Shown in pieces: positions 1,936-33,312 of a stretch of 64,000 nt of DNA. Within the stretch, counting starts at the first letter, position 1, and every line of letters starts with the position of its first letter. The position numbers were made by a program, and so were the translations under genes. The notes beneath the pieces were generated by a model, which worked only from the letters and a program-made list of their open reading frames with translations, had not been told where the DNA came from and searched no databases. This DNA comes from Candidatus Woesearchaeota archaeon (GTDB lineage Archaea; Nanobdellota; Nanobdellia; SCGC-AAA011-G17; JACPIM01), in contig JACPIM010000004.1 in the NCBI GenBank assembly GCA_016188045.1, positions 8,493-72,492 on the forward strand. The letters are read 5' to 3'.

Positions 1936-3696
1936 ATGGTTTATACTAGAAGTAGACTAATCAAGGAATATCTTGATTTCTTTAAAAGCAAAAACCACAA
2001 GGAAATTCCAAATGTCTCTTTAATACCAGAAAACGACCCAACAGTTCTGTTTACAACCGCAGGAATGCATCCCTTAGTCCCATTCCTATTAGGTCAAAAA
2101 CACCCATTAGGAGAAAGGCTTTGCAATGTCCAAAAATGCATTAGAACACAAGATATAGAAGAAGTGGGAGACGAAGTTCACCACACTTTTTTTGAAATGC
2201 TTGGTAACTGGTCTTTAGGCGATTACTTTAAAAAAGAAGCCATAGAATACAGTTTTGAATTCTTAACAAAAGTTCTAAAAATTACAAAAGAAAAATTAGC
2301 AGTCACTTGTTTCTCAGGGGATAAAGATGCTCCAAAAGACACCGAATCAGAAAAAACCTGGCAGTCACTAGGAATTCCTAAAGAAAGAATTGCTTTTTTG
2401 CCAAAAGAAAATAACTGGTGGGGCCCAGCTGGAAAAACAGGCCCCTGTGGTCCAGATACTGAAATGTTTTATTGGAAATCAAATAAACCAGCTCCAAAAA
2501 AATTTGATCCTGATGATAAAGATTGGGTTGAGATATGGAATGATGTCTTAATGCAGTATGTTAAAGATGAAAAAGGAAATTATGTTGAAGCAAAGCAAAA
2601 AAACATTGATACAGGAATGGGTGTTGAAAGAACAATTGCAGTATTAAACAACTTAGAAGACAATTATTTAACAGATGCCTTCTTGCCTATAATAAAAAAG
2701 ATAGAAAAAATTTCTAATAAAAAATACAATAAAGATAAAGAAGAGACTAGAGCAATTAGAATAATTACAGACCATATTAAAGCCTCTGTAATGATCCTTG
2801 GAGAAGGGATAGAACCGAGCAATAAAGAGCAAGGATATGTTTTAAGAAGATTAATTAGACGAGCCATTCGATATGGAAAAGAGCTTGGAATTGAAAAAGG
2901 ATTTACTAAAAATATTGCAGAAAGTGTTTTAGAAATTTATGAAGACTATTTACATTTAAAGCAGAAGAAGGAATTTATTTTTAATGAATTGGAAAAAGAA
3001 GAGAAAAGATTTAAACAAACGTTAAACACAGGATTAAAGTATTTTGAAAAAATATCCAGAGATAAAAAAGAAATTCAAGGAAAAGAAGCATTTTTGCTTT
3101 ATCAATCATATGGTTTCCCATTAGAGATGATTTTAGAGTTGGCAAAAGAAAAGAAAATAAAAATTGACACAGAAGGCTTCAAAAAAGAATTTGAAAAACA
3201 CCAAAAATTATCTAGAACAGCAACAGAAGGCAAATTCAAATCAGGTCTAGCTGACAATTCAGAAGCAACTAAAAAACTGCATACAGCCACACATTTGTTG
3301 AACGAAGCATTAAGAATATCATTAAATAAGCCGGATTTAATTCAAAAAGGCTCTAATATTACACCAGAAAGATTAAGATTTGACTTCAATTTTGATAGAA
3401 AATTAACAAATGAAGAGATAAAAAAAGTTGAAGATCTTGTAAACAAGAAAATAAGAGAAAGTTTAGAAGTTAAAAGACAGGAAATGACCGTAGATGAAGC
3501 TAAAAAGTTAGGAGCACAAGGAGTTTTTGAACACAAATATGGAGAAAAAGTTTCTGTTTACATAATAAACAACTTTTCAAAAGAAATATGCACAGGACCG
3601 CATGTAAAAAACACCAAAGAAATAGGTAAATTCAAAATTATTAAAGAAGAAGCTGTTGCTGCCGGGATAAGAAGGATTAAGGCAGTGTTAGAATGA
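1936..3696 (+). CDS. alaS: alanine--tRNA ligase, short form (catalytic plus truncated editing region, no C-Ala domain)
   Basis: N-terminus matches class-II AlaRS: LFTTAGMHP, HHTFFEMLGNWSLGDYFK. HTATHLL (HxxxH editing motif) and C-terminal CTGPHV...GIRRIKAV are present; only 586 aa. Confidence 0.85.
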   Translation: MVYTRSRLIKEYLDFFKSKNHKEIPNVSLIPENDPTVLFTTAGMHPLVPFLLGQKHPLGERLCNVQKCIRTQDIEEVGDEVHHTFFEMLGNWSLGDYFKKEAIEYSFEFLTKVLKITKEKLAVTCFSGDKDAPKDTESEKTWQSLGIPKERIAFLPKENNWWGPAGKTGPCGPDTEMFYWKSNKPAPKKFDPDDKDWVEIWNDVLMQYVKDEKGNYVEAKQKNIDTGMGVERTIAVLNNLEDNYLTDAFLPIIKKIEKISNKKYNKDKEETRAIRIITDHIKASVMILGEGIEPSNKEQGYVLRRLIRRAIRYGKELGIEKGFTKNIAESVLEIYEDYLHLKQKKEFIFNELEKEEKRFKQTLNTGLKYFEKISRDKKEIQGKEAFLLYQSYGFPLEMILELAKEKKIKIDTEGFKKEFEKHQKLSRTATEGKFKSGLADNSEATKKLHTATHLLNEALRISLNKPDLIQKGSNITPERLRFDFNFDRKLTNEEIKKVEDLVNKKIRESLEVKRQEMTVDEAKKLGAQGVFEHKYGEKVSVYIINNFSKEICTGPHVKNTKEIGKFKIIKEEAVAAGIRRIKAVLE

Positions 3697-3737
3697 AAAG
3701 AAGAAAAAATAAATCTATCCGCTTTTATGAGTAAGCG

Positions 3738-4236
3738 TTATGTTAAAAGTTTCATATTCTTTACGAGCAGATATAATAGAACTGGCCAGTTTTTAATACA
3801 AACAGGATTACCAAAGCCATCTGGACAAGCTTCTGCTTCTTTAGAAGTGACTCCTCCACCTTTCTTTGCATATAAATTATCGAAATCTCTTATTAGAATA
3901 AAGTTAAGCGGCTGGTTTTTTTCTATGTGGACTAGGATCTCGTCCATATATATGTATTATATTATTATACTGAGTAGCTAACTTTTCTCTAGGAATAGTC
4001 TGTGCTAATGGTGAATCAGGATGTATCATTCTTAACCTAACCCAACAAATATTTCTCTCTACTTGAACACGGTGTTCTAAAGAACAACGATCACCAAATT
4101 TATCATCTGGATAATTGTACCTTGTTACAGTATCTATTGCTCTATTATATAAGTCCACTAATTCACTATATCTTATCATATTTCCCCCAAAATAACATCT
4201 TAAAATATAGATTATAAATCTATCTATTAAAAACAA
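3738..4236 (-). CDS. hypothetical protein split across two overlapping frames at an A7 run (frameshift or slippage candidate)
   Basis: ORFs 3904..4236 and 3738..3947 overlap by 44 nt in different frames around agaaaaaaacc (3906-3920); a 1-nt change in the A-run fuses them into about 165 aa. Confidence 0.3.
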
Positions 4237-6489: not shown

Positions 6490-9400
6490 ATGACAACTAT
6501 CCAAAAGATTAAATTTCACGGTTTTAAGTCGTTTGCAAAACCACTGGAGATAGAGTTTGGAAATAGTTTTAATTGCATTATTGGACCAAATGGTAGTGGA
6601 AAGTCATTATCAGGTGATGCAACAGTATTAACAAGCAAGGGAAATGAAATATCAATTAAAAAACTAGTTGAATCAAAACTAAACAAAGCAGATAAAATAA
6701 AGAAGTTAGATGATGGGGTTTATTGTGAAAGTAAAAGACCAACAAAGATTATTTCTTTAAACCCCATTAGTATGAAAAATGAGGAGTATGCAATTTCAAG
6801 ATTTATAAAAAGAGAAGGAGAACCACACCTATACGAGATAAAGACAAGAACAGGCAAAAAAATTAAATGTACTGGCTGTCATCCAGTTATGATATTTAAA
6901 GAAGGAAAAGTTCAAAGCGTCTTAGTTCAAGAGCTTAAAAAGACAGACAGAATCGCAACCCCTAGAATAATATTCACAAATACTAATTCAGAATCAAAAA
7001 ATCTAGCTAGACTCCTAGGCTACATAATAGGAGATGGATATATAAATAAAAACAGAATAGAATTTGTTAATGCTGATAAAGAAATTTTGGAAGATTTTAT
7101 AGGACTAACACGAGAATTATTTAATCTTTCTCCAGAATATAATAAAGTTACTAATAATCTTACAAGACTAATCTACTGGAATAAGAAATTTGTTAATTTT
7201 ATAATTGCTTTAATTAAAAATAAAAAAGAGAAATATACGAGCCAATATAAATATATTCCTAATAGAATCCTAAAGCTGGGTTTAGATACAACATCCAATT
7301 TGTTGGCAGCTTTATATGACACAGATGGAACAGTATACAAAAATAATGATGTTATAGAATTCTGCTCTAAAAATGAAAAATTGGTAAATCAAATTCAAAG
7401 ATTACTGTTAAGATTTAATATAATCGCAAGAAAAAAAGAAAGAAGTTGTTGTGCTTCTAATACAATCAATAAAATAAAAAGAAAGTATTATTATTTATAC
7501 ATTGAGGGACATGAAAATATAATTAAATTCTACAAGAATATTCCACTAAGATGTAGACACAAAATAGAAAGATTAGAAAATAAATTAAAATCACCAAAAG
7601 TTTCAAATCCAAATATTGATGTTTTACCAAAAGAAACGAATGCATTAATAAAAAAAGCGATAAATTTACTAGGAATTAGTTATAAACCATTAAGAAAAGA
7701 ATATCCAAAAATAGCGGCATATATAGAAAATAGATGCAATCCAACAAGACCGGGCTTACATGAAATTATACCAATATTATCATCTAAATTATTACAAATT
7801 TACTCTTCTGGCTTATCTTTAAGGTACGACCAATTAGAATTAGTAAATGTAATGGATCAACTAGGATTATCAGGTAGACAAACAAGCAACGCATTAGGCT
7901 TAAGCCCACAAATAATAAGAAACCATTGGGCAACAGGAAATTTTCAGGCCAAAGCCGAAAATTTAGAAAATTTCTTCAATTTTATTCAACGCGCAATAAG
8001 TTCAAGACTAATAGAATTAAAGTCAATAATGAATAAGTTATATAATTTGGCAAATTCTGATATTTTTTGGGATGAAATAGTCTCTATCAAAAAAGTAAAG
8101 GGCGAAAAATTTGTTTATGATTTAACAATCCCCAATAATCACAATTTCATAGCAAACGGTATTTTTGTACATAATTCAAATATAGTTGATGGTTTAACTT
8201 TTGTATTGGGAAAAAGATCAGCTAAAGCCATGAGGGCAGAAAAAGCCTCTAATCTTATTTTCAATGGCGGAAAAAAAGGCTCAGCAATGAAAGAAGCGTC
8301 AGTATCAATTTATTTTACAAATAATAATAAGGAGTTTCCAATAGCCTCAGAAACAGTAAAAATAACAAGGATAGTTAAGCAATCCGGTCAATCAGATTAT
8401 AAAATAAATGACGAAAAAAGAACAAGAGAGCAGATTATTGATTTGATATCGAAAGCAGGCATTGATCCAGACGGCTTTAACATCTTGCTTCAGGGAGATG
8501 TAGTTTCTTTTACAGAAATGCGTTCTGATGAACGTAGACAAATAATAGAAGATGTAGCAGGAATTTCAGTTTATGAAGATAAAAAGCAGAAAGCACTATT
8601 AGAGTTAGAAAAAGTAGATCAAAAAATAAATGAAGCCAATTTGATTTTAAAAGAAAGAGATGCTCATTTAAGGAACTTAAAAAAGGAACGTGATCAGGCA
8701 TTAAAATTCAAAGAATTGGAGCAAAATATCAAAGAAAATAAAGCAACTTATCTTTACTTGCAAATAAAAGAAAAAAGCGAAAAAAAAGAAGAGGTTGTCT
8801 CTAGGATAAAAAAACACCAGCAGAATATTGATTCTCTAAATAAAGAAGTCCAAGAATTAAGAACAAAAATAGACCAAAAGAAATCAGAAGTAGACTCAAT
8901 AAATAAGAACATTGAAGAAAAATCAGAGATAGAACAAGTTAGCTTACAACAGAATATTGAAAAAATAAGGGAAGAAATTTTAAGAGACGAAACCAGATTG
9001 GAAAACTTAAAAACAGAGATTCAAAAAGTTAATCAAAGGTCATCGCAATTAAAAAAAGATGAACTGGAAATAGAAAGTAAGATTGGAGAGTTAAATAAAG
9101 AAAAAATAAATCTTGAAGAAAAACAAAAAACACTAAAAAGAGAAGAAGAAACAGTAAGAAAAAATATCCAAAATTACAAAAAAAAGCACAATATCCAGGA
9201 CTTCTCATTAATAGAGAAAATAGAAACAGAAATAGAACAGTTGCAAAACAGCATAATCTATTTAAAAGAGCAAAAATCTTCTTTGATTATAGAACAGGAT
9301 AGAAACAATCAAGAAGTAACTAAAGTTAAAGAATTAGTAGATAAGTTCTCCTCACCACAAGTCAAAAAGAAAAGAGAAGAACTGGAAAAAGTTGAAAAAG

Positions 9401-11493
9401 AACTGGACAATTTAATCAATAACTTAAACGTTACTATAACTCAAATAGATTCAAATAAAGAAAAATTAGAGCAATTTAAGCAAGAGCTTTCCTCTTTAAG
9501 AGGGAAAAAAATATCAATCACAGATTCCCTTTCTGGAAATCAATCAGTGAACTTAATCTTAAATTCAAAAATTAACGGCGTTTTTGGAACAATCGCTTCA
9601 TTAGGTAAAGTAAATGAAAAATATTCAACCGCATTAGAAGTAACAGCCGGTGGAAGAACAAATAGCGTTATAGTGGATAACGATACAACCGCCCAAAAAT
9701 GCATCCAGATATTAAAAGACAAAAAGGCAGGTATAGCTACCTTCTTGCCATTAAACAAAATCAGAGAGAGAATTCAGTTAAATGAATTAAATCAACTAAA
9801 GAACCTTTCAGGTGTAAAAGACATAGCGTTAAATCTTATTGAATATGATAAAAAATTTCATAATGCTTTTTCATATGTTTTCGGCTCAACTCTAGTAGTA
9901 GATGACATACCAACAGCAAGAAAAGTAGGCATAGGCAGAGTCAGAATGGTAACTTTAGAAGGAGATTTAGTAGAGCCTTCAGGAGCTATGATAGGGGGTT
10001 ATAGAAGAAAAATATCGGGGGTTTTTGAGCAAAAAGATATTAATTCGGACATTACAAAAAAAGAATCTGAAATAGAAATAATACTAAGAAAGATACAGGA
10101 GTTTAATAATAAAAAATTGTCTCAGGAAAAGATTTCAAATGAATTAAGAAATAAAAAATATAACTTAGAAGCAGAACTAATAAAGGCACAAAAGACTTCA
10201 GACATTAGCAATTTAAATGAATTAAAAAAATCATTCTCTGACCTAAATAACAATATAAAAGAATCCAATTTAAAGATAAAACAACTAACACAGGAAATTG
10301 AAAAGAATGAACGGGGATTGGATAAACTAAAATCGGAAAGGCAGAAACTACAAGTTAAACCAGATTCTAAAGATTCTTTGTCTTCATTAGAAAACATAGA
10401 AAAAGAGCTTCAAAACAGGATTTCATTAATATCTCGGATACAAACAGAAATAAAAAATATAGAAAACCAGATTTCCTCCATTCACAACCCGGAAAAATTA
10501 AAAATACAAGAGATTATAAAACAACATCAAAAAGAGCTTCAAGATTTTCAAAATGAAATTAACCAAATAGAACAAAAACTTAAATCTTCTCATCCTAATT
10601 TAAAAGAACAAGAGAAAAAAGAAAAACAATTTAGGGAAGACTACAAAAACCAGTTTATTAAAAGAAACAAGTTAACAGAAGAAATAAGAAACACAGAGTC
10701 AAAGATATCACAACACGATTTCAAAATTAAGGAAATTGAAAAACGCCTCAATGAAGTTTCACTAGATAATGCTAAGATTTCAGCAGAAATAGAAGCTATT
10801 GATTCTGAATTTGAAGAATTCAAAGGAACAAAAATAAGAAGAAACATTTCATTAGCAGACTTAAAGCTTGAGATAAGTGAGTTTGAAAAAATGCTAAAAT
10901 CCTTAGGAAATGTGAATTTAAGGGCTTTAGAAGTTTATGAAACAATAGAAAGAGAATATCATGAAATAGTAGAAAAAACAAACGGGTTACAAAATGAAAA
11001 AGAAGATGTTTTGACTATGATGGCAGAAATTGAAGGAAAGAAAAAGCACCTTTTCCTTAAAACTTATAAGCAAATATCTGAAAATTTCAAAAGAATTTTC
11101 TTATCATTATCAGCAAAAGGAGAAGCTTATTTAGATTTGGAAGACAAAGAAAATCCGCTACAAGCAGGCATAGATATTAAAGTAAAACTAGCCGGAACTA
11201 AGTTTTTAGACATTACTTCATTATCTGGAGGAGAAAAAACTTTGACAGCCATAGCACTAATATTTGCAATTCAAGAATATAAACCCGCTTCTTTCTATTT
11301 ATTAGACGAAGTAGATGCCGCTCTAGATAAAACAAACTCTCAATTATTGGCAAAACTAGTGGCAACTTATGCGAAACAATCCCAATGCATTATGATATCC
11401 CATAATGATTCAGTTATAACAGAAGCAGACCAAGTTTATGGGGTAACAATGCAGCAAAATGGTATTTCTAAAATAGTTTCCATGAAACTTTAA
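6490..11493 (+). CDS. smc: chromosome segregation ATPase SMC, interrupted by an intein at the Walker A motif
   Basis: N-terminal FxxFKSF and GPNGSGKS; very long coiled coils with a central hinge (GTIASLGKV...AGGR); C-terminal LSGGEKTLTAIALIFAIQ, YLLDEVDAALD and ISHN motifs. 1143 aa remain after intein removal. Confidence 0.9.
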   Translation: MTTIQKIKFHGFKSFAKPLEIEFGNSFNCIIGPNGSGKSLSGDATVLTSKGNEISIKKLVESKLNKADKIKKLDDGVYCESKRPTKIISLNPISMKNEEYAISRFIKREGEPHLYEIKTRTGKKIKCTGCHPVMIFKEGKVQSVLVQELKKTDRIATPRIIFTNTNSESKNLARLLGYIIGDGYINKNRIEFVNADKEILEDFIGLTRELFNLSPEYNKVTNNLTRLIYWNKKFVNFIIALIKNKKEKYTSQYKYIPNRILKLGLDTTSNLLAALYDTDGTVYKNNDVIEFCSKNEKLVNQIQRLLLRFNIIARKKERSCCASNTINKIKRKYYYLYIEGHENIIKFYKNIPLRCRHKIERLENKLKSPKVSNPNIDVLPKETNALIKKAINLLGISYKPLRKEYPKIAAYIENRCNPTRPGLHEIIPILSSKLLQIYSSGLSLRYDQLELVNVMDQLGLSGRQTSNALGLSPQIIRNHWATGNFQAKAENLENFFNFIQRAISSRLIELKSIMNKLYNLANSDIFWDEIVSIKKVKGEKFVYDLTIPNNHNFIANGIFVHNSNIVDGLTFVLGKRSAKAMRAEKASNLIFNGGKKGSAMKEASVSIYFTNNNKEFPIASETVKITRIVKQSGQSDYKINDEKRTREQIIDLISKAGIDPDGFNILLQGDVVSFTEMRSDERRQIIEDVAGISVYEDKKQKALLELEKVDQKINEANLILKERDAHLRNLKKERDQALKFKELEQNIKENKATYLYLQIKEKSEKKEEVVSRIKKHQQNIDSLNKEVQELRTKIDQKKSEVDSINKNIEEKSEIEQVSLQQNIEKIREEILRDETRLENLKTEIQKVNQRSSQLKKDELEIESKIGELNKEKINLEEKQKTLKREEETVRKNIQNYKKKHNIQDFSLIEKIETEIEQLQNSIIYLKEQKSSLIIEQDRNNQEVTKVKELVDKFSSPQVKKKREELEKVEKELDNLINNLNVTITQIDSNKEKLEQFKQELSSLRGKKISITDSLSGNQSVNLILNSKINGVFGTIASLGKVNEKYSTALEVTAGGRTNSVIVDNDTTAQKCIQILKDKKAGIATFLPLNKIRERIQLNELNQLKNLSGVKDIALNLIEYDKKFHNAFSYVFGSTLVVDDIPTARKVGIGRVRMVTLEGDLVEPSGAMIGGYRRKISGVFEQKDINSDITKKESEIEIILRKIQEFNNKKLSQEKISNELRNKKYNLEAELIKAQKTSDISNLNELKKSFSDLNNNIKESNLKIKQLTQEIEKNERGLDKLKSERQKLQVKPDSKDSLSSLENIEKELQNRISLISRIQTEIKNIENQISSIHNPEKLKIQEIIKQHQKELQDFQNEINQIEQKLKSSHPNLKEQEKKEKQFREDYKNQFIKRNKLTEEIRNTESKISQHDFKIKEIEKRLNEVSLDNAKISAEIEAIDSEFEEFKGTKIRRNISLADLKLEISEFEKMLKSLGNVNLRALEVYETIEREYHEIVEKTNGLQNEKEDVLTMMAEIEGKKKHLFLKTYKQISENFKRIFLSLSAKGEAYLDLEDKENPLQAGIDIKVKLAGTKFLDITSLSGGEKTLTAIALIFAIQEYKPASFYLLDEVDAALDKTNSQLLAKLVATYAKQSQCIMISHNDSVITEADQVYGVTMQQNGISKIVSMKL
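6604..8175 (+). mobile_element. intein (524 aa) with LAGLIDADG homing-endonuclease domain, inserted after GPNGSGK
   Basis: Starts S-LSGDATV (block A), ends VYDLTIP...FVHN followed by S (+1). Two LAGLIDADG-like blocks, LLGYIIGDGYI and LLAALYDTDGTV. Excision restores GPNGSGKSNIVDGLTFVLG. Confidence 0.8.
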
Positions 11494-28900: not shown

Positions 28901-28934
28901 TAAAACCACCTATTTTATAAAAAATACCATTCAC
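25914..28934 (-). CDS. FlaI/TadA-family secretion ATPase (T2SS-E) interrupted by an intein
   Basis: Walker A VGGTGTGKTS, Asp box IVSIEDTRELNL, RPDYVVVGEIRGAEAY, then the intein, then GHPSMGTMHAE (His box). 562 aa remain after intein removal. Confidence 0.85.
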   Translation of the reverse strand: MNGIFYKIGGFMLFRKKEAKTNSFANTKALTEKTIPEQKAQTEFKINLKQQIFELPTVKDKTKLNIRYPLIAPFAYAHIFWDEKRHELIYQVEEPILNSDEQRVLAILEKGIEELINISFIAIKSSEVIIKYLEENVKVLLNEYRIKVNKNTLLKLMYYIYRDFVGLNEIEPIMRDYFIEDIECNGVNSSVYIVHRKYRNIRTNVLYNDVSKLTSLVEKLAQKCGKYISYASPLLDGALPDGSRANATYTQDITSKGPTFTIRKFTVDPWSPVKLMQFRTVSPEVLAYLWLLIEYESNVLIVGGTGTGKTSFLNSIAFFVPPQARIVSIEDTRELNLLHENWLPSVAREGVGITSLVGTKQGEVTLFDLLKESFRQRPDYVVVGEIRGAEAYVLFQGMSSIRGDEKIMVLNDEHPKRISIKDMKKDIKYKVITYDELGNVKIMPVKFMIRHSGQKVLYEIITKKGRKITISKNHSLFNYDNGIIPIEAEKIKKGDRVLIPSKIPCGYCDFDEIDIMEYLSDIRVFAPDHVKEASHKLGYYKASKICGVCSITDYYSNFKRSKPSSLRAEKFVRLMKEAGLKYNKDDLIFKYDNRSKGFMGNLKLTPELLRLCGYYVSEGSLDDGENNSKIEFYNLNKEILDDMRHCIRKVTGSDAKERITYGFGKSIELSVNHRVLFEFLKRHFGKKENKHIPDFVFGLSKEKISALLSGLYTGDGSLTKDVGYYTISKELANDVAQLLLVYGIVARIGKRKRKGRKKIDYEVLFFSKWEKDVFLENVKIIGKRIIMKKIGKPKSSNYVNDLYLDIVLKINKKILKKPEPVYDLCVPGTQNFIGGFGGVLLHNSGHPSMGTMHAEDLHTMIRRLESPPINLSPTLVNSLDVVCIMANIKQEGKETRKVKKIIEIVKIGDKAGEETINEPFIWDPKSDKFYFKSHGKSYLKMDSRAFDKITTHYGISREKLMDEFRKRTLLLMRMYKAGITGFKEVHNVITAYYKTPDMILKKFGIS
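26406..27737 (-). mobile_element. intein (444 aa) with LAGLIDADG homing-endonuclease domain, between QGMS and SGHP
   Basis: Starts S-IRGDEKIMV, ends VYDLCVP...VLLHN followed by S. LAGLIDADG-like blocks LCGYYVSEGSL and LLSGLYTGDGSL. Confidence 0.75.
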
Positions 28935-28970
28935 ACTTAATATATTTATGTTTTAACTTAGAAGTGAATT

Positions 28971-29549
28971 CTAAATTACTTTAATTTTAATATTCACGGG
29001 AAGTTGACCAACACCACCAGTATCTGATTCACCAATACCTTCATTTGATATTATTAGTCCAAACTTTCCAGTTAGTTTACTACTTTCTCCTTCTGAAATC
29101 AATCTAATATGTCTATCAGAATAATCTGAACTTATTTTAATAATAAAATAATCCACCAATAATTTATCGCTATGCTCAATAATATCTAAATTTTTTTCCC
29201 TTATAATTATTGCTTTTCCATCTGTAGGAAGATTGGTAGGAGAAATTTCCTGAATTTTTGCTTTTGTCTGCATTTGCCAGTAAATTTGATTTTTATCTCC
29301 TGTCAAAATAGTTAATTCTCCTTTTTTAATTATTACCGGGTTTAATGCCCTTCTGCTACCGGGACCATCAGAAACTACAGTATTAATTGCTTCATCAATA
29401 GAATGCATAACTTCTTTGCTCTGTACAAAAGTATTTCTATCTCTCATATCATTTATTAAAGGAACACCAGCAGTAACAATTAAAGTCAAAGTTATAACTC
29501 CTATCGCTATATAAATTACAGTTGCTATCCAAATATCACCTTTTTTCAT
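28971..29549 (-). CDS. membrane-anchored pilus accessory protein (FlaF/FlaG-like)
   Basis: Single N-terminal TM (IWIATVIYIAIGVITLTLIV) then a beta-rich soluble domain; sits between the pilins and the ATPase. Confidence 0.4.
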   Translation of the reverse strand: MKKGDIWIATVIYIAIGVITLTLIVTAGVPLINDMRDRNTFVQSKEVMHSIDEAINTVVSDGPGSRRALNPVIIKKGELTILTGDKNQIYWQMQTKAKIQEISPTNLPTDGKAIIIREKNLDIIEHSDKLLVDYFIIKISSDYSDRHIRLISEGESSKLTGKFGLIISNEGIGESDTGGVGQLPVNIKIKVI

Positions 29550-29624
29550 CTTGCCTCTTTTTATTAATTGAATGTTTTATATAACTTGAAAAAAGTTTAT
29601 ATACTTTCCTACCCTATATTCTTT

Positions 29625-29942
29625 ATGGAAAAATCACTACTTATAAAATTTTTAGGAGAAAATCCAATATTCAGAATTATAGATTCTTTAATTGAAAGTA
29701 AGGGCATAGATGTAACTAAAAAACAGATCATAGAATTATCAGGTATTTCAAAATCTGCTTTTTTTAAATATTGGAAACAAATTGAAGAACAAGAAATTGT
29801 ACAGATTACAAGAAAATTTGGAAAAACAAAACTTTTTATTTTAAATTCTAAAAACCCAATAGTTAAAAAATTACTTGAACTAGAAAGCACATTAATTGAA
29901 AAAACATTGAATAAACACAAATTAATTGAAATATCAGCTTAG
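29625..29942 (+). CDS. winged-HTH transcriptional regulator, divergent from the pilus operon
   Basis: ORF-track start 29568; internal Met at 29625 preferred. HTH-like IIELSGISKSAFFKYWKQIEE. Confidence 0.5.
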   Translation: MEKSLLIKFLGENPIFRIIDSLIESKGIDVTKKQIIELSGISKSAFFKYWKQIEEQEIVQITRKFGKTKLFILNSKNPIVKKLLELESTLIEKTLNKHKLIEISA

Positions 29943-30042: not shown

Positions 30043-30618
30043 TTAAACAGTTGGTTCTGCAGTTACTTGACAATTTGGAACATTTACTAAATTGTAATCC
30101 TGGACATTTTGTGTACATAACACCGGATCTTTGTCATCAGTTCCAGCTATTTTAGCAATTGCATCTATTTTGATGGGATTATTAATTGCTAAGGTATTAA
30201 TTAATGCAGGAGTGCTAGTGCTAATAAAAGTCTTAACACCAAACGATCCTAATGGACTAGTAGAGAGATCTAGTTTATCTGCTTTAACATCTCCCTCGTC
30301 GCCAGGACTTGCTCTTAAAGTAAGCTCAATAATATCTAAATTACCATTATTTTCAACAGTTACGCTTTTAATATGTCCTTGATTGGCCCCATCACAAAGC
30401 ACTCTTGATATGCTAAATTTCAATTCTGTAACACATTTCAAAGTAACATCTGTAGTCTGAGTAGTTCTTTTAGTCATACTATCAACAAAACTGCCACCCC
30501 AAGTTATTATCACAGCAGCTAAAGCCACAGTAAAACCAATAAGCAATACAGTGGCAATTAAAGGAGTTATACCCTTTTCGTCAAAGTTTTTCTTTGAAAA
30601 AGGTTGTTTTGATATCAT
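30043..30618 (-). CDS. type IV pilin (class III signal peptide), unusually long leader
   Basis: MISKQPFSKKNFDEKG then ITPLIATVLLIGFTVALAAVII (archaeal prepilin N-domain). Confidence 0.7.
   Translation of the reverse strand: MISKQPFSKKNFDEKGITPLIATVLLIGFTVALAAVIITWGGSFVDSMTKRTTQTTDVTLKCVTELKFSISRVLCDGANQGHIKSVTVENNGNLDIIELTLRASPGDEGDVKADKLDLSTSPLGSFGVKTFISTSTPALINTLAINNPIKIDAIAKIAGTDDKDPVLCTQNVQDYNLVNVPNCQVTAEPTV
30578..30618 (+). repeat. 41-nt direct repeat, copy A (encodes the leader of the first pilin)
   Basis: tcaaaacaacctttttcaaagaaaaactttgacgaaaag on the gene strand; near-identical to 33158..33198. Confidence 0.85.
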
Positions 30619-30627
30619 AATTTCACC

Positions 30628-31122
30628 TCACACCCTAATAGTTTTACTAGCTCCAGAGCAAGGAACTAAAGGAGCACCTCTCCCTTCTGGCCTTAATGCA
30701 GGAATAATTTCAACTTCAGTAGTCTGTTTACATAATCTCCCGCCAACACCGGTAGTATCATTTTCCGTACATTCTTGATCACTTTTTACTAATGAATATG
30801 AACCGCCAGGCTCTATATTATCATATAGCTCAGATTTTCTAACATTCCCACCAAATACCTCTCTTATTATCAGATTAATTTTTATATTTCCTTTATTAAT
30901 AATATTAATCACGCTTCCAGCAGTAACATCAATTTGAACTGCATCACACTCCAATTGTTTTCTGCTCAATTCAGCATTTTTTTCAACAGCTTGTTTCTGC
31001 ACCTCTCTTGTCCATAAAAAAACAACAGTTATAACTATTAAAACAAAAAAAAGCAACAAAAGTGTAGCAATTAAAGGAGTTATACCTCTTTTTTTCATTT
31101 TAGCATTCTTCAATTGATTCAA
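30628..31122 (-). CDS. type IV pilin (class III signal peptide)
   Basis: MNQLKNAKMKKRG then ITPLIATLLLLFFVLIVITVVFL. Confidence 0.75.
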   Translation of the reverse strand: MNQLKNAKMKKRGITPLIATLLLLFFVLIVITVVFLWTREVQKQAVEKNAELSRKQLECDAVQIDVTAGSVINIINKGNIKINLIIREVFGGNVRKSELYDNIEPGGSYSLVKSDQECTENDTTGVGGRLCKQTTEVEIIPALRPEGRGAPLVPCSGASKTIRV

Positions 31123-31594
31123 TTATCTTTTCACCTTCAGGACAAATTGTATTCATATCACCAAAAGCTATAAACGGCGTTAATATTATTTCTTTATTAC
31201 TATCACAATTGTTGAGATTATTTAAACTTTGCTCTTCTCCAGGTTTTAAAGGATTATCCAAATCTATTTTACCGCTAATATCACTTCCATCATCCTTAGT
31301 GCATATATATCTTATTCCATTAATGCTAAAACTACCCCTGTTTACAGCCTTGATTTCTAAATTATTATTCCTAATGCACCCAAAACCACCGAGATGAACT
31401 TCAGCACATCTAGTTTCAATTTCAGATTCTTTTACAGTAGTTTCAACAACTCTTTTAGACTCACCTTTGGACCACATACCAACAACAATTGCCAAAGTGA
31501 TACTTAATCCTATAATCAAGACATAGGATATTAATTCGGCAGCCCCCCTTTTATTCATTATCAACACACCCACCTTCCAACTTACAAAGATCAT
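31100..31594 (-). CDS. type IV pilin (class III signal peptide)
   Basis: MNKRGA then AELISYVLIIGLSITLAIVVG. Confidence 0.7.
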   Translation of the reverse strand: MIFVSWKVGVLIMNKRGAAELISYVLIIGLSITLAIVVGMWSKGESKRVVETTVKESEIETRCAEVHLGGFGCIRNNNLEIKAVNRGSFSINGIRYICTKDDGSDISGKIDLDNPLKPGEEQSLNNLNNCDSNKEIILTPFIAFGDMNTICPEGEKIIESIEEC

Positions 31595-32348
31595 TCATCA
31601 AGCAATTTTCTTCATCTCTTAAATTACAGTCACAAATAGTTTTTGGGCTTAATGAAGGATCTACACAATATTGTCTTAATCCATCAACCCAATTTTCACC
31701 TTTTTCAAATTTATGATTAGTATACACTTTTCTCTCCTCTCCTTTTTTTTCCTCGCTTAAAATAACTATCTGTGGAACACCCTTAATAATACCACTAGTA
31801 TATTTTATATTACTAACAACATAAGTAACATTATAAACATTATCATCTGTCGTTAAATCCAAAGTTTCAGAACACTTCTCTAAAATATCACCTAGTATAC
31901 CCATAAAATCTTCTGAAAGGTCACCAAAAGTAGTACCTAAGTGTATTTCGCCTTTACAACCATCTATCTTTTTTTTATTATTTTCATCAACCCAGACTAA
32001 TATAGGCTGATCTAAATGATTTCCAATAATTACTCTTCTGTTATCCCTATGACTGTAATCAAAAAAATAGATAAATCCAAAGGCAGAATTTATGGTTTTG
32101 GAATATGAAGTAAATTTCCCGCTAAACTCATTAAAATTTTTTTGAACATCTAATTCACTATTTTTTAATAATTCCTGACTTAAAGAAGTAAGAAATTTAG
32201 CACTTTCCTTATCATAATTGTTGCTTATTTCAATAAAAAAATCACTAAAAACAGTGCCCTTTGCGGTATTTAAATTAATGGAAAGAAGATATATAACTAA
32301 ACTAAAGATAAGTGCAGCTAAGATATAGATCTGACCTCTTTTATTCAT
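31551..32348 (-). CDS. type IV pilin-like protein (class III signal peptide), Cys-rich C-terminus
   Basis: MNKRGQ then IYILAALIFSLVIYLL. Confidence 0.65.
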   Translation of the reverse strand: MNKRGQIYILAALIFSLVIYLLSINLNTAKGTVFSDFFIEISNNYDKESAKFLTSLSQELLKNSELDVQKNFNEFSGKFTSYSKTINSAFGFIYFFDYSHRDNRRVIIGNHLDQPILVWVDENNKKKIDGCKGEIHLGTTFGDLSEDFMGILGDILEKCSETLDLTTDDNVYNVTYVVSNIKYTSGIIKGVPQIVILSEEKKGEERKVYTNHKFEKGENWVDGLRQYCVDPSLSPKTICDCNLRDEENCLMNDLCKLEGGCVDNE

Positions 32349-32415
32349 GCATATTGATATTATCTCTTTAATATATATAGGTTTCTAATGAAATTTAAGG
32401 TTTAGTTTATAAGAG

Positions 32416-32886
32416 TTATCCAAAATACTCTTCTTTAGAATATTCTTTAACTTTGCTTTCCCATCCTTTTTTAACTTTGTTTATAATTTTAGATATATCT
32501 TTTTTAAGTTCAAACCACCTTTTTACAGCATCATTAATGAATTCGGCATCTTTTTTTTCATCAAAATTCAGGTCTAATAAGCTATTTCTTCTTTCTAGAT
32601 TCATAAGCTCTCTTAAAATAACAGCAACTTTCTTTTTTTCTTCTTCATCAAGAAAATTAGCTTCTTCTAAACTAATCGGACTGCCGGGATTTGGTTGTAA
32701 AAAACCCTGTAGATTATGTATAAACATAGACACCCTATCATTAATCCTTCTTCTAATAAATCTCAAGACATGTGATATCTCTACTAAACTAGTAAAATAA
32801 AGCAATTCAAATTCATTATCTAATTCTTTCCAACTAGGCAATTTGTACTTCTTAGACAAAACCGCATATTGATTCTTTATTTCCAT
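32416..32886 (-). CDS. hypothetical cytoplasmic protein
   Basis: ORF of 156 aa, K/E-rich; no family recognised. Confidence 0.45.
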   Translation of the reverse strand: MEIKNQYAVLSKKYKLPSWKELDNEFELLYFTSLVEISHVLRFIRRRINDRVSMFIHNLQGFLQPNPGSPISLEEANFLDEEEKKKVAVILRELMNLERRNSLLDLNFDEKKDAEFINDAVKRWFELKKDISKIINKVKKGWESKVKEYSKEEYFG

Positions 32887-32938
32887 TTTGATAATCCCCT
32901 TCGCGAGTTGATAAGGATGGAATCCTTATATTTATAAA

Positions 32939-33024
32939 ACTAATGAAAAGCCAGGGGTGAGACTTGAACTCACTATCTCCGCCTTTTTGTTTTAAATACC
33001 AAGGCGGTACATTGACCAGTTATG
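32939..33024 (-). tRNA. tRNA-Thr (anticodon GGU) with 12-nt canonical intron
   Basis: Hand fold: acceptor GCCGGGG, D-arm GCAT/ATGT, anticodon stem CCGCC/GGCGG with loop TTGGTA-[TTTAAAACAAAA]-A, T-arm GTGAG-TTCAAGT-CTCAC. Caveat: the 1:72 pair reads G:G. Confidence 0.5.
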
Positions 33025-33073
33025 CTACCCCGGCACAAAATCTGAAGAAATAATGCGATTAATAAAGATTATG

Positions 33074-33217
33074 AATGCGGGGAACAGGATTTGAACCTGC
33101 GCAGGCACTAAGCCACAGGATTTCTCAGCAAGACTTAAGTCCTGCCCGTGAAGTCCAACTTTTTCGTCAAAGTTTTTCTCTGAAAAAGGTTGTTTGACCA
33201 GACTCCGGCATCCCCGC
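33074..33217 (-). tRNA. tRNA-Leu (anticodon UAA), class II, with two introns (about 44 nt in D-arm, 12 nt at 37/38)
   Basis: Acceptor GCGGGGA/TCCCCGC plus A; T-arm GCAGG-TTCAAAT-CCTGT; variable arm TGGC-TTAGT-GCCTGC; anticodon stem CAGGA/TCCTG with loop CTTAAG-[TCTTGCTGAGAA]-A; D-stem CCG/CGG split by about 44 nt. Confidence 0.65.
33158..33198 (+). repeat. 41-nt direct repeat, copy B (inside the tRNA-Leu D-loop/intron)
   Basis: Matches copy A with two mismatches and one indel. Confidence 0.85.
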
Positions 33218-33312
33218 ATATAAATAAACAAACAAAAATCTACTTTATAAAATTTATCATAAAATTTATTAATCTCCAAAACTAATTATTTCAATAAAAA
33301 GAAGGTGATTTT

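Follow-up and report, generated by a model that had tools for sequence, protein, structure and literature searches.

The 64,000-nt stretch of a Candidatus Woesearchaeota genome analysed here (contig JACPIM010000004.1; hereafter the window) carries two near-identical copies of a 39-nt segment in the same orientation, one in the leader-coding region of a type IV pilin gene and one spanning the start of a non-canonical D-loop intron in a tRNA-Leu(UAA) gene 2.6 kb away. We propose that the pilin copy arose as a DNA-level copy of a short palindromic intron module, which is tolerated in a leader that is cleaved off and has been homogenised with the intron, and we put the probability of this mechanism, the most likely one, at about 70%. 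Its main value would be as a naturally occurring case in which tRNA-intron sequence has moved beyond tRNA genes, which bears on how archaeal tRNA genes gain and exchange non-canonical introns. A limited literature search did not find this combination described, namely a spliceable D-loop intron and a translated leader insertion formed from one module in a DPANN archaeon.

The shared segment in the pilin and tRNA-Leu genes

A repeat search of the window returned a direct repeat at 30575-30609 and 33161-33195 with 34/35 identity. In a global alignment of the minus-strand sequences, the segment comprises 30574..30612 (copy A, TCAAAACAACC...GACGAAAAG; in full TCAAAACAACCTTTTTCAAAGAAAAACTTTGACGAAAAG) and 33159..33197 (copy B, TCAAACAACCTTTTTCAGAGAAAAACTTTGACGAAAAAG), that is, 39 nt over which the copies differ by one A/G substitution and by two indels of a single A within A-runs. 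The 41-nt same-orientation repeat described in an earlier note on this DNA is real, with these as its exact extents. A 32-nt degenerate pattern allowing ≤3 mismatches matched only these two sites in the window, and 0 of 100 dinucleotide shuffles of the window contained even one match. Other window occurrences of CAACCTTTTT (48233 and 50410) were discarded as unrelated coding sequence. Eight Logan contigs (L001-L008), drawn from several SRR121134xx runs, match the window at 100% identity; the pilin copy is spanned by five of them and the entire tRNA copy by two, and the remaining contig begins inside the tRNA copy. Since these independent contigs include both copies at full identity, the repeat is not an assembly artefact, and the match did not vanish on re-assembly. 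The A/T-rich composition and homopolymer runs of the segment might suggest a chance likeness of low-complexity sequence or an assembly chimera, but the shuffles, the independent assemblies and the orthologous copies in other genomes have already refuted both.

Copy A lies in an archaeal type IV pilin gene (30043..30618, minus strand; 191 aa), where it forms codons 3-15 and so encodes leader sequence, as previously read. The exact protein is present in the database as HYV88_02185 of a Candidatus Woesearchaeota archaeon, with homologues from Woesearchaeota/Nanoarchaeota metagenome-assembled genomes that are named archaellin/type IV pilin N-terminal domain protein. It matches the NCBIfam model TIGR02537 (arch_flag_Nterm; 35 bits, cut-off 20, residues 13-42) and scores under the cut-off against Pfam Pilin_N (19.9 versus 25.2 bits). 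A short basic leader ending in [KR]G, a hydrophobic helix and the N-terminal domain match together identify a class III signal peptide. The leader reads MISKQPFSKKNFDEKG and is followed after the predicted cleavage site by ITPLIATVLLIGF... (KG↓ITPLIATVLLIGF), a site kept in all pilin orthologues; a ribosome-binding site, TGAGGTG, is located at 30624..30630. The leader had been called acidic, but its computed net charge is +2.

Alignment with the empty sites of two related loci (L018 and L030) and the filled sites of two others (L009 and L015) resolves most of copy A as a 33-nt in-frame insertion after codon 4 (30574..30606, minus strand), homologous to the core of the tRNA-Leu D-loop intron. 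The insertion adds 11 residues (CAACCTTTTTCAAAGAAAAACTTTGACGAAAAG, codons 5-15), by which the leader grows from MLLKRG to MISKQPFSKKNFDEKG, and the window copy has no alternative in-frame start codon.

Copy B belongs to a 142-nt tRNA-Leu(UAA) gene (33076..33217, minus strand; exon 1, 33194..33217; exon 2, 33134..33149; exon 3, 33076..33121), which ARAGORN and Rfam both missed in the raw window. With two introns removed in silico, ARAGORN calls tRNA-Leu(taa). One of these is a canonical 12-nt intron at 37/38 (33122..33133, minus strand; TCTTGCTGAGAA), and the other is a non-canonical 44-nt intron in the D-loop, between tRNA positions 21 and 22 (33150..33193, minus strand); a custom bulge-helix-bulge scanner recovers both. 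Copy B consists of the last 4 nt of exon 1 (TCAA) and the first 35 nt of the D-loop intron, which bears out the earlier observation that it spans exon and intron. The D-loop intron motif comprises a bulge AA↓A, a 4-bp helix GGTC/GACT, a bulge TC↓A and an inner helix CAAC(C)TTTTTC/GAAAAAGTTG; with its two 3-nt bulges and 4-bp helix but no outer exon helix (H1=0), it represents a relaxed form of the motif. The intron is presumably removed by the tRNA splicing endonuclease. In the syntenic outgroup locus L035 (65% nt identity in GAPDH), the tRNA-Leu(TAA) gene beside GAPDH has the canonical intron only and reads GGTCAAACGG across the site, exactly the predicted spliced junction GGTCAA↓ACGG. The exon boundaries are further fixed by a compensatory change in the D-stem of L015 (TCA/TGA versus CCG/CGG).

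D-loop introns among the relatives are of two types, type A bearing copy B and type B being unrelated in sequence (GAGTTATC...). In-silico splicing yielded tRNA-Leu(taa) in the window, L018, L015, L023 and L009, and tRNA-Leu(aag) in L029 (all called by ARAGORN). Type A occurs in the window (with the 37/38 intron), in L018 and L015 (with introns at 37/38 and in the T-loop), in L023 (with three others, four in total) and in the tRNA-Leu(aag) gene of L029 (with a T-arm intron). Type B occurs in L009 / L043 and in L039 (probably the same organism as L030, from the same run), in both cases with introns at 30/31 and 38/39, and the outgroup L035 has no D-loop intron and a single intron at 37/38. Relatives whose tRNA-Leu lacks the intron segment, the comparison that had been proposed, were thus found in L035 and L009. 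The pilin insertion is present in short form (33 nt) in the window and L009 / L043 and in long form (81 nt) in L015, and it is missing in L018, L030, L032 and L035; it was not seen in L023, for which one pilin homologue was read (P0077, short leader), and the L029 contig lacks coverage of the pilin locus. Scans of genomes and metagenomes with a 24-nt pattern returned only Woesearchaeota tRNA-Leu genes, the L015 pilin and two unrelated chance matches (L024 and L027), and a search for GAPDH homologues indicated a small clade, with identity falling from 80% to 63% after two clusters. Apart from the two chance matches, the segment was thus found only within a narrow group of Woesearchaeota and not among unrelated lineages.

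Filled and empty pilin sites and the interval between the copies

Among 113 pilin homologues, the extension occurs only in the window protein (P0001), in P0002 (84% identity, leader MISKQPFSMKNVGEKG) and in P0006 (68%, leader MISKQPFLKKNPNRQSRWGPVVKNNLGVGEKG). The leaders of P0003 (88%) and P0004 start with MLLKRG, that of P0005 with MSLLKKG and that of P0007 with MFNKRG; short leaders also prevail among the other homologues whose sequences were read, and the few with long leaders (P0010 and P0017) are of unrelated sequence. Of the homologues inspected, none outside P0001, P0002 and P0006 has the extension. At the nucleotide level, the stretch containing the ribosome-binding site and ATG, gtgaggtgaaattATG, is the same in the window, L009, L015, L018 and L030. 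The empty site in L018 and L030 reads ATGTTATTAAAAAGAGGTATAACT and the filled site in the window and L009 reads ATGATATCAAAA + 33 nt + GGTATAACT; the insertion in L015 is the same plus 48 nt inside, 81 nt in total. Because the ribosome-binding site and ATG are the same in filled and empty relatives, the extension is an in-frame insertion into an existing leader. On this comparison, the ribosome-binding site, ATG and KG↓I cleavage site of the pilin are ancestral, and the alignments show the pilin copy to be a derived, polymorphic insertion. The earlier suggestion that the start codon had been captured along with the leader does not hold, as both the ribosome-binding site and ATG lie outside the segment and are identical in relatives without the insertion. 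We rejected a precise deletion as the origin of the empty site in L018, because the L018 and L030 empty sites agree completely, down to the TTA TTA codons, which slippage between the A-runs would not recreate.

The three inserts (33, 33 and 81 nt) are all multiples of 3 and open, and a non-coding long-form copy in L018 has lost 1 G, which places a stop in the pilin frame. The simplest reading is that the pilin insert would be translated and then removed with the leader. It could instead be a bulge-helix-bulge intron of the mRNA, cut out by the tRNA splicing endonuclease to restore a short leader, as in the pre-mRNA of crenarchaeal cbf5, which is a precedent for such an intron (PMC2738675). This possibility draws on the homology to a real tRNA intron, on the fact that loss of 30-33 nt would yield MISKKG/MISKG↓ITP, and on the endonucleases of DPANN lineages, reported to be of broad specificity and to accept relaxed motifs; disrupted tRNA genes are likewise reported from these lineages (PMC5829648). 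However, the pilin copy is without the exon-complementary 3' tail, GTTGGACTTC, that forms the motif in the tRNA, and the scanner that recovers both tRNA-Leu introns found no motif in the three pilin mRNAs (window, L009 and L015) whose removal retains the frame and the KG↓I site. Splicing would also not need all three inserts to be open multiples of 3, and we consider an mRNA intron quite improbable.

The 2.6 kb between the copies contains three genes with MxKRG and hydrophobic N-termini (30628..31098, 31100..31558 and 31551..32348), a hypothetical gene encoding 156 aa (32416..32886) and a tRNA-Thr(GGU) gene with a 12-nt canonical intron (32949..33034; Rfam RF00005, 52.2 bits), all on the minus strand, as well as the 3' two-thirds of tRNA-Leu. 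The ARAGORN intron option called the tRNA-Thr as Phe, which we discarded as mis-splicing. This content is as first described, except that only one of the three supposed pilin genes scores against a pilin model, just below its cut-off, the other two resembling pilins at the N-terminus only. L009, L015, L018 and L030 have the interval genes in an unchanged order, as do L032 and L035 for the three pilin-like genes. Relatives whose pilin site is empty (L018, L030, L032 and L035) thus retain the pilin-like genes, and L018 and L030 also the 156-aa gene. By synteny, the interval is shown to be ordinary conserved chromosomal DNA of the pilus locus.

This bears directly on the earlier proposal that the repeat is a recombination footprint with the tRNA as attachment site. 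Same-orientation direct repeats of tRNA-gene sequence 2.6 kb apart, one of them overlapping the 5' end of an open reading frame (ORF) as in SSV-type int genes (model in PMC3293823), would fit copies that are the attL and attR of a mobile element in tRNA-Leu, be it of SSV-type or pNOB8-type or according to the Caldiarchaeum tRNA-Thr model. The attachment-site reading nevertheless fails because the interval is conserved pilus-locus DNA without an integrase: its genes are syntenic in relatives having one repeat or none, and no integrase or recombinase domain was detected in Pfam and NCBIfam scans of ORFs in the interval and flanks or in precomputed Pfam annotations of the syntenic loci. In addition, the repeated part corresponds to tRNA positions ~20-21 plus the intron and is internal rather than a tRNA terminus, the segment has 0 matches in IMG/VR viral contigs, and the filled site differs by a clean 33-nt addition in an otherwise unchanged leader. 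An integration footprint is accordingly highly improbable.

Copies of the module and probable direction of copying

The module has the inverted ends CAACCTTTTTC / GAAAAAGGTTG and runs from CAACCTTTTTC to GAAAAAG(G)TTG. In the tRNA copies, these form terminal inverted repeats (CAAC(C)TTTTTC ... GAAAAAG(G)TTG) as expected of MITEs (transposable elements of the miniature inverted-repeat type); they are partly kept in the pilin copies and have decayed in a third copy located in a spacer. The latter is an insertion of ~85 nt between the gene for a 193-aa protein and the pilus ATPase gene (L018 11170-11254; L016 6858-6942), and it represents a diverged copy of the full 81-nt L015 form, with both arms and both inner hairpins (an alignment score attained by 0/2000 shuffles). 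In the window (28935..28975) and in L015, the orthologous spacers are empty. Since the L018/L016 spacer holds the whole 81-nt form, the additional 48 nt nested in the L015 insert were not gained in an event of their own. Presence/absence polymorphism, likewise a hallmark of MITEs, is therefore seen at three unrelated sites, namely the tRNA-Leu D-loop (absent in L035), the pilin leader and the L018/L016 spacer. Profiles of the long form and of the inner hairpin returned no further copies from the window or related loci using nhmmer.

The intron is present in L018, where the pilin site is empty, in L023 and in a second isoacceptor, tRNA-Leu(aag), in L029, and it is missing in the outgroup L035. 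A transfer from the tRNA, or from a common source, to the pilin is favoured as the more parsimonious direction because the intron is spread over more lineages and extends to a second tRNA-Leu isoacceptor, because nearly all other pilin homologues inspected have short leaders, and because the empty site ATGTTATTAAAAAGAGGT is identical in two lineages. The earlier derivation of the leader from tRNA-intron sequence consequently stands for the extra residues, which are homologous to the D-loop and intron, and does not extend to the start codon. Conversely, the sequence could have arisen in the pilin leader, or as a free element landing there first, and later been copied into tRNA-Leu as an intron. 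The long form is known from a pilin (L015) and a spacer (L018) and was not seen in any tRNA, so the donor may be neither window copy; yet the intron is more widespread (L018, L023, L029; two isoacceptors) than the pilin insert (three lineages), which makes this reverse direction improbable.

The copies appear to have been kept similar within genomes. Orthologous 33-nt inserts differ at 3-4/33 nt, far less than synonymous sites of the same gene (pS 0.39-0.58; binomial P≤1e-4), and the differences between the window and L009 inserts are nonsynonymous in 3/3 cases. The motif CTTTGAC is common to the window pilin and the window intron and occurs in no other copy examined; similarly, CGTTGGC...GAAAAAGGT is common to the L015 pilin and the L015 intron. 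A pilin copy that follows the intron of its own genome calls for gene conversion or re-copying, or else for selection at the nucleotide level.

Selection of this kind would be expected of a shared functional RNA element, in which the 5' coding region of the pilin mRNA mimics the D-loop/intron hairpin of pre-tRNA-Leu and one factor couples tRNA-Leu(UAA) maturation with pilin expression. This factor might be the splicing endonuclease or an RNA-binding protein; alternatively, the intron itself, once excised and possibly circularised, might serve as a decoy. The conservation of the insert relative to synonymous sites, with its few changes all nonsynonymous, the covariation of the two copies within a genome and the retention of the inner hairpin CCTTTTT/GAAAAGG in the pilin copies are all consistent with such an element. 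However, the insertion is missing from most other relatives and from L018, which is as near to the window as L009 and is the sister of L009 in the locus tree; L009 has kept its insert despite a different intron in its syntenic tRNA-Leu; and neither the window nor the L009 pilin 5' region is more stably folded than shuffled sequence (z -0.2 and -0.9, respectively). The copies have the same sense, which makes antisense pairing impossible, and gene conversion from a constrained intron accounts for the conservation without any function. We therefore regard a shared RNA element as unlikely.

We hypothesise instead that the two copies are paralogous copies of one short palindromic module that was moved at the DNA level. 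In tRNA-Leu(UAA), the D-loop module and a ~10-nt exon-complementary tail would form a bulge-helix-bulge and be spliced out as the 44-nt non-canonical intron. In the pilin, 33 nt of the module after codon 4, upstream of the KG↓ITPL prepilin-peptidase site, would be translated as an 11-residue extension that is tolerated because the class III leader is cut off. Copying could have involved a small non-autonomous palindromic element, or microhomology-templated repair or ectopic gene conversion between sites 2.6 kb apart, and the copies may since have been kept similar via gene conversion or re-copying. We infer that the peptide extension has no function of its own; no sign of function was found.

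Several observations weigh against this proposal. In a tree built from four pilus-locus proteins, the topology is ((window,(L018,L009)),L015),L030,L032,L035, and the insertion pattern (window, L009 and L015) misfits it under a single event without recombination, as do the type-A and type-B intron alleles; the presence/absence pattern needs recombination between lineages or repeated events. The pilin of L009 has the insertion, but its syntenic tRNA-Leu bears the unrelated D-loop intron. Selection on a function of the RNA or DNA could instead account for the strong conservation of the nucleotide sequence. Copies are also few: the window has two, and the other ~300 kb, from related loci, have only those in tRNA-Leu genes, the pilin and one spacer, and therefore a multicopy transposable element is not demonstrated; no clear target-site duplication was found at the pilin or spacer sites, nor any parent transposase. 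Lastly, splicing, translation and leader cleavage are each predicted from sequence.

Comparable systems, related modules and neighbouring features

Bulge-helix-bulge tRNA introns of Thermoproteales are described as undergoing DNA-level transposition by a mechanism given as unknown (Fujishima et al. 2010, summarised in PMC4090602). As far as that summary describes them, the present introns are similar in that near-identical intron sequences occur at different loci per genome, intron content differs between close relatives and movement is suggested at the DNA level, here with one intron in two tRNA-Leu isoacceptors and up to four introns per gene. They differ from the summarised cases in their DPANN host (Woesearchaeota), in having one copy in a protein-coding gene and others in spacers, where there is no splice motif, and in that only the 5' part of the intron and 4 exon nt are shared. 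Rickettsia palindromic elements and other MITEs insert in frame into ORFs (reviewed in PMC10969869), and they resemble the pilin insertion as short palindromic modules that are translated in frame without destroying the protein and have long and short forms as well as intergenic copies. Unlike those elements, the module is 33-81 nt rather than ~100-150 nt in length, has a low copy number in the DNA examined, can also act as a spliceable tRNA intron and has an archaeal host; neither target-site duplications nor a parent transposase were identified for it.

Integrase att sites are tRNA ends, as in SSV-type and pNOB8-type integration and the Caldiarchaeum model of tRNA-Thr disruption (PMC3293823). 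Those cases share with ours a partial tRNA-gene copy that is directly oriented, lies within a few kb of the intact gene and is linked to intron gain; here, however, the repeats enclose conserved host DNA and no recombinase, they correspond to an internal rather than a terminal part of the tRNA gene, and empty and filled sites differ by 33 nt instead of by an element. The bulge-helix-bulge-type mRNA intron of crenarchaeal cbf5 is comparable in that an archaeal protein-coding gene contains the type of sequence that the tRNA splicing endonuclease excises, and that relatives have gained or lost it, whereas the pilin copy is in frame, without a splice motif and most likely translated. Microhomology-templated insertion and short-tract ectopic gene conversion copy a short patch from a nearby site. 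The nearby same-orientation copy, the microhomology at the junctions and the homogenised copies of the pilin locus agree with such processes, but the presence of the long form at a third site points to a module with more autonomy.

Further sequences in the locus pair an intron with a non-intron site. An intergenic hairpin, TAAGGATTCCATCCTTATCAAC (32907..32928, minus strand), located upstream of the 156-aa gene and also found in L009, resembles the T-loop intron of tRNA-Leu in L018 and L015 (ATAAGGGTAAACCCTTATCAAC...; L018 3551-3585, L015 2822-2856). Genomes with the T-loop intron are without the complete hairpin (L015 retains AAGGAT only), and genomes with the hairpin are without the T-loop intron. 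The T-arm intron of the L029 tRNA-Leu(aag) gene (10504-10550, minus strand) shares ~35 nt (22 exact, AAAAGAAAACCTTGGAAAAGAA) with L015 4744-4768 and L012 1203-1227, the L015 partner being a hypervariable spacer downstream of the 156-aa gene. In the D-loop and T-loop pairs, the two that involve the window or its nearest relatives, the shared part extends from the last 4-5 exon nt through the 5' part of the intron and ends before the exon-pairing 3' tail. The junctions of the copied pilin patch lie in microhomology (left T(T/C)AAA, right AAAAAG(A)GGT); either a small mobile element or microhomology-templated copying may have produced the copies. The locus contains three separate intron/non-intron sequence pairs, which point to a reading that we put forward tentatively, as a possibility short of an even chance. 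On this reading, the non-canonical tRNA-Leu introns of this clade would not be tRNA-specific, each being a copy of a small palindromic module able to insert into spacers too and, in frame, into the pilin signal peptide. If so, a module would insert anywhere and survive in a tRNA only where exon pairing forms a splice motif, and the locus would provide direct population-level evidence of the gain and DNA-level movement of archaeal bulge-helix-bulge introns.

Because close relatives provide both filled and empty sites for the D-loop module in three contexts (tRNA D-loop, ORF and spacer), together with long and short forms and signs of ongoing homogenisation, the DNA-level model can be tested in available metagenomes. 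The locus also suggests that a class III signal peptide can accommodate such insertions in its cleaved leader. For annotation, standard tools miss these multi-intron tRNA-Leu genes entirely, and odd long pilin leaders may be insertion scars rather than functional features.

Several additional features of the tRNA-Leu region were recorded. Logan contigs of two runs end or start at 33097..33126 (30 nt, in the 3' half of tRNA-Leu), which marks a branch in the assembly graph; the probable cause is co-occurring Woesearchaeota that have the same part of tRNA-Leu. An 84-aa ORF (33025..33279, minus strand) runs through tRNA-Leu and shares the reading frame of the pilin leader (…KQPFSEKNFDEK…); a protein-database search returned no homologue, and the ORF is almost certainly spurious. 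The possibility that the intron contains a box C/D guide RNA was judged by visual inspection alone and dropped, UGACGA and CAGA being poor matches and CAGA not being kept (CAAAGA in the L015 tRNA). Between GAPDH and tRNA-Leu, L039 (166-885) and L038 (57-776) encode a free-standing 239-aa LAGLIDADG_3 ORF, and a homing endonuclease beside an intron-variable tRNA gene could drive break-induced gene conversion.

The T2SSE pilus ATPase (window 25914..28934, minus strand) contains a LAGLIDADG intein in the window and in L015/L012 (1006-1041 aa), which is missing in L018/L016 and L034/L035 (539-541 aa). In the four lineages where both are visible, the distribution of the intein equals that of the pilin-leader insertion, and the match could reflect co-conversion with intein homing or a shared haplotype. 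Between two pilin-like genes, the window has a 124-aa ORF on the opposite strand (29568..29942, plus strand) with a weak TetR_N-like helix-turn-helix match, and there is no gene at this position in L015/L012, L016/L018 or L034/L035. Lastly, a 3.3-kb block that is missing from the window is located in L018 between the 156-aa gene and the pilin cluster, surrounded by a 260-nt direct repeat with 96% identity (L018 4700-4959 / 7970-8229; L016 388-647 / 3658-3917), and encodes five nucleotide-metabolism genes (Pur_DNA_glyco, thymidylate kinase, dCMP deaminase, DUF7768 and Ham1p-like).

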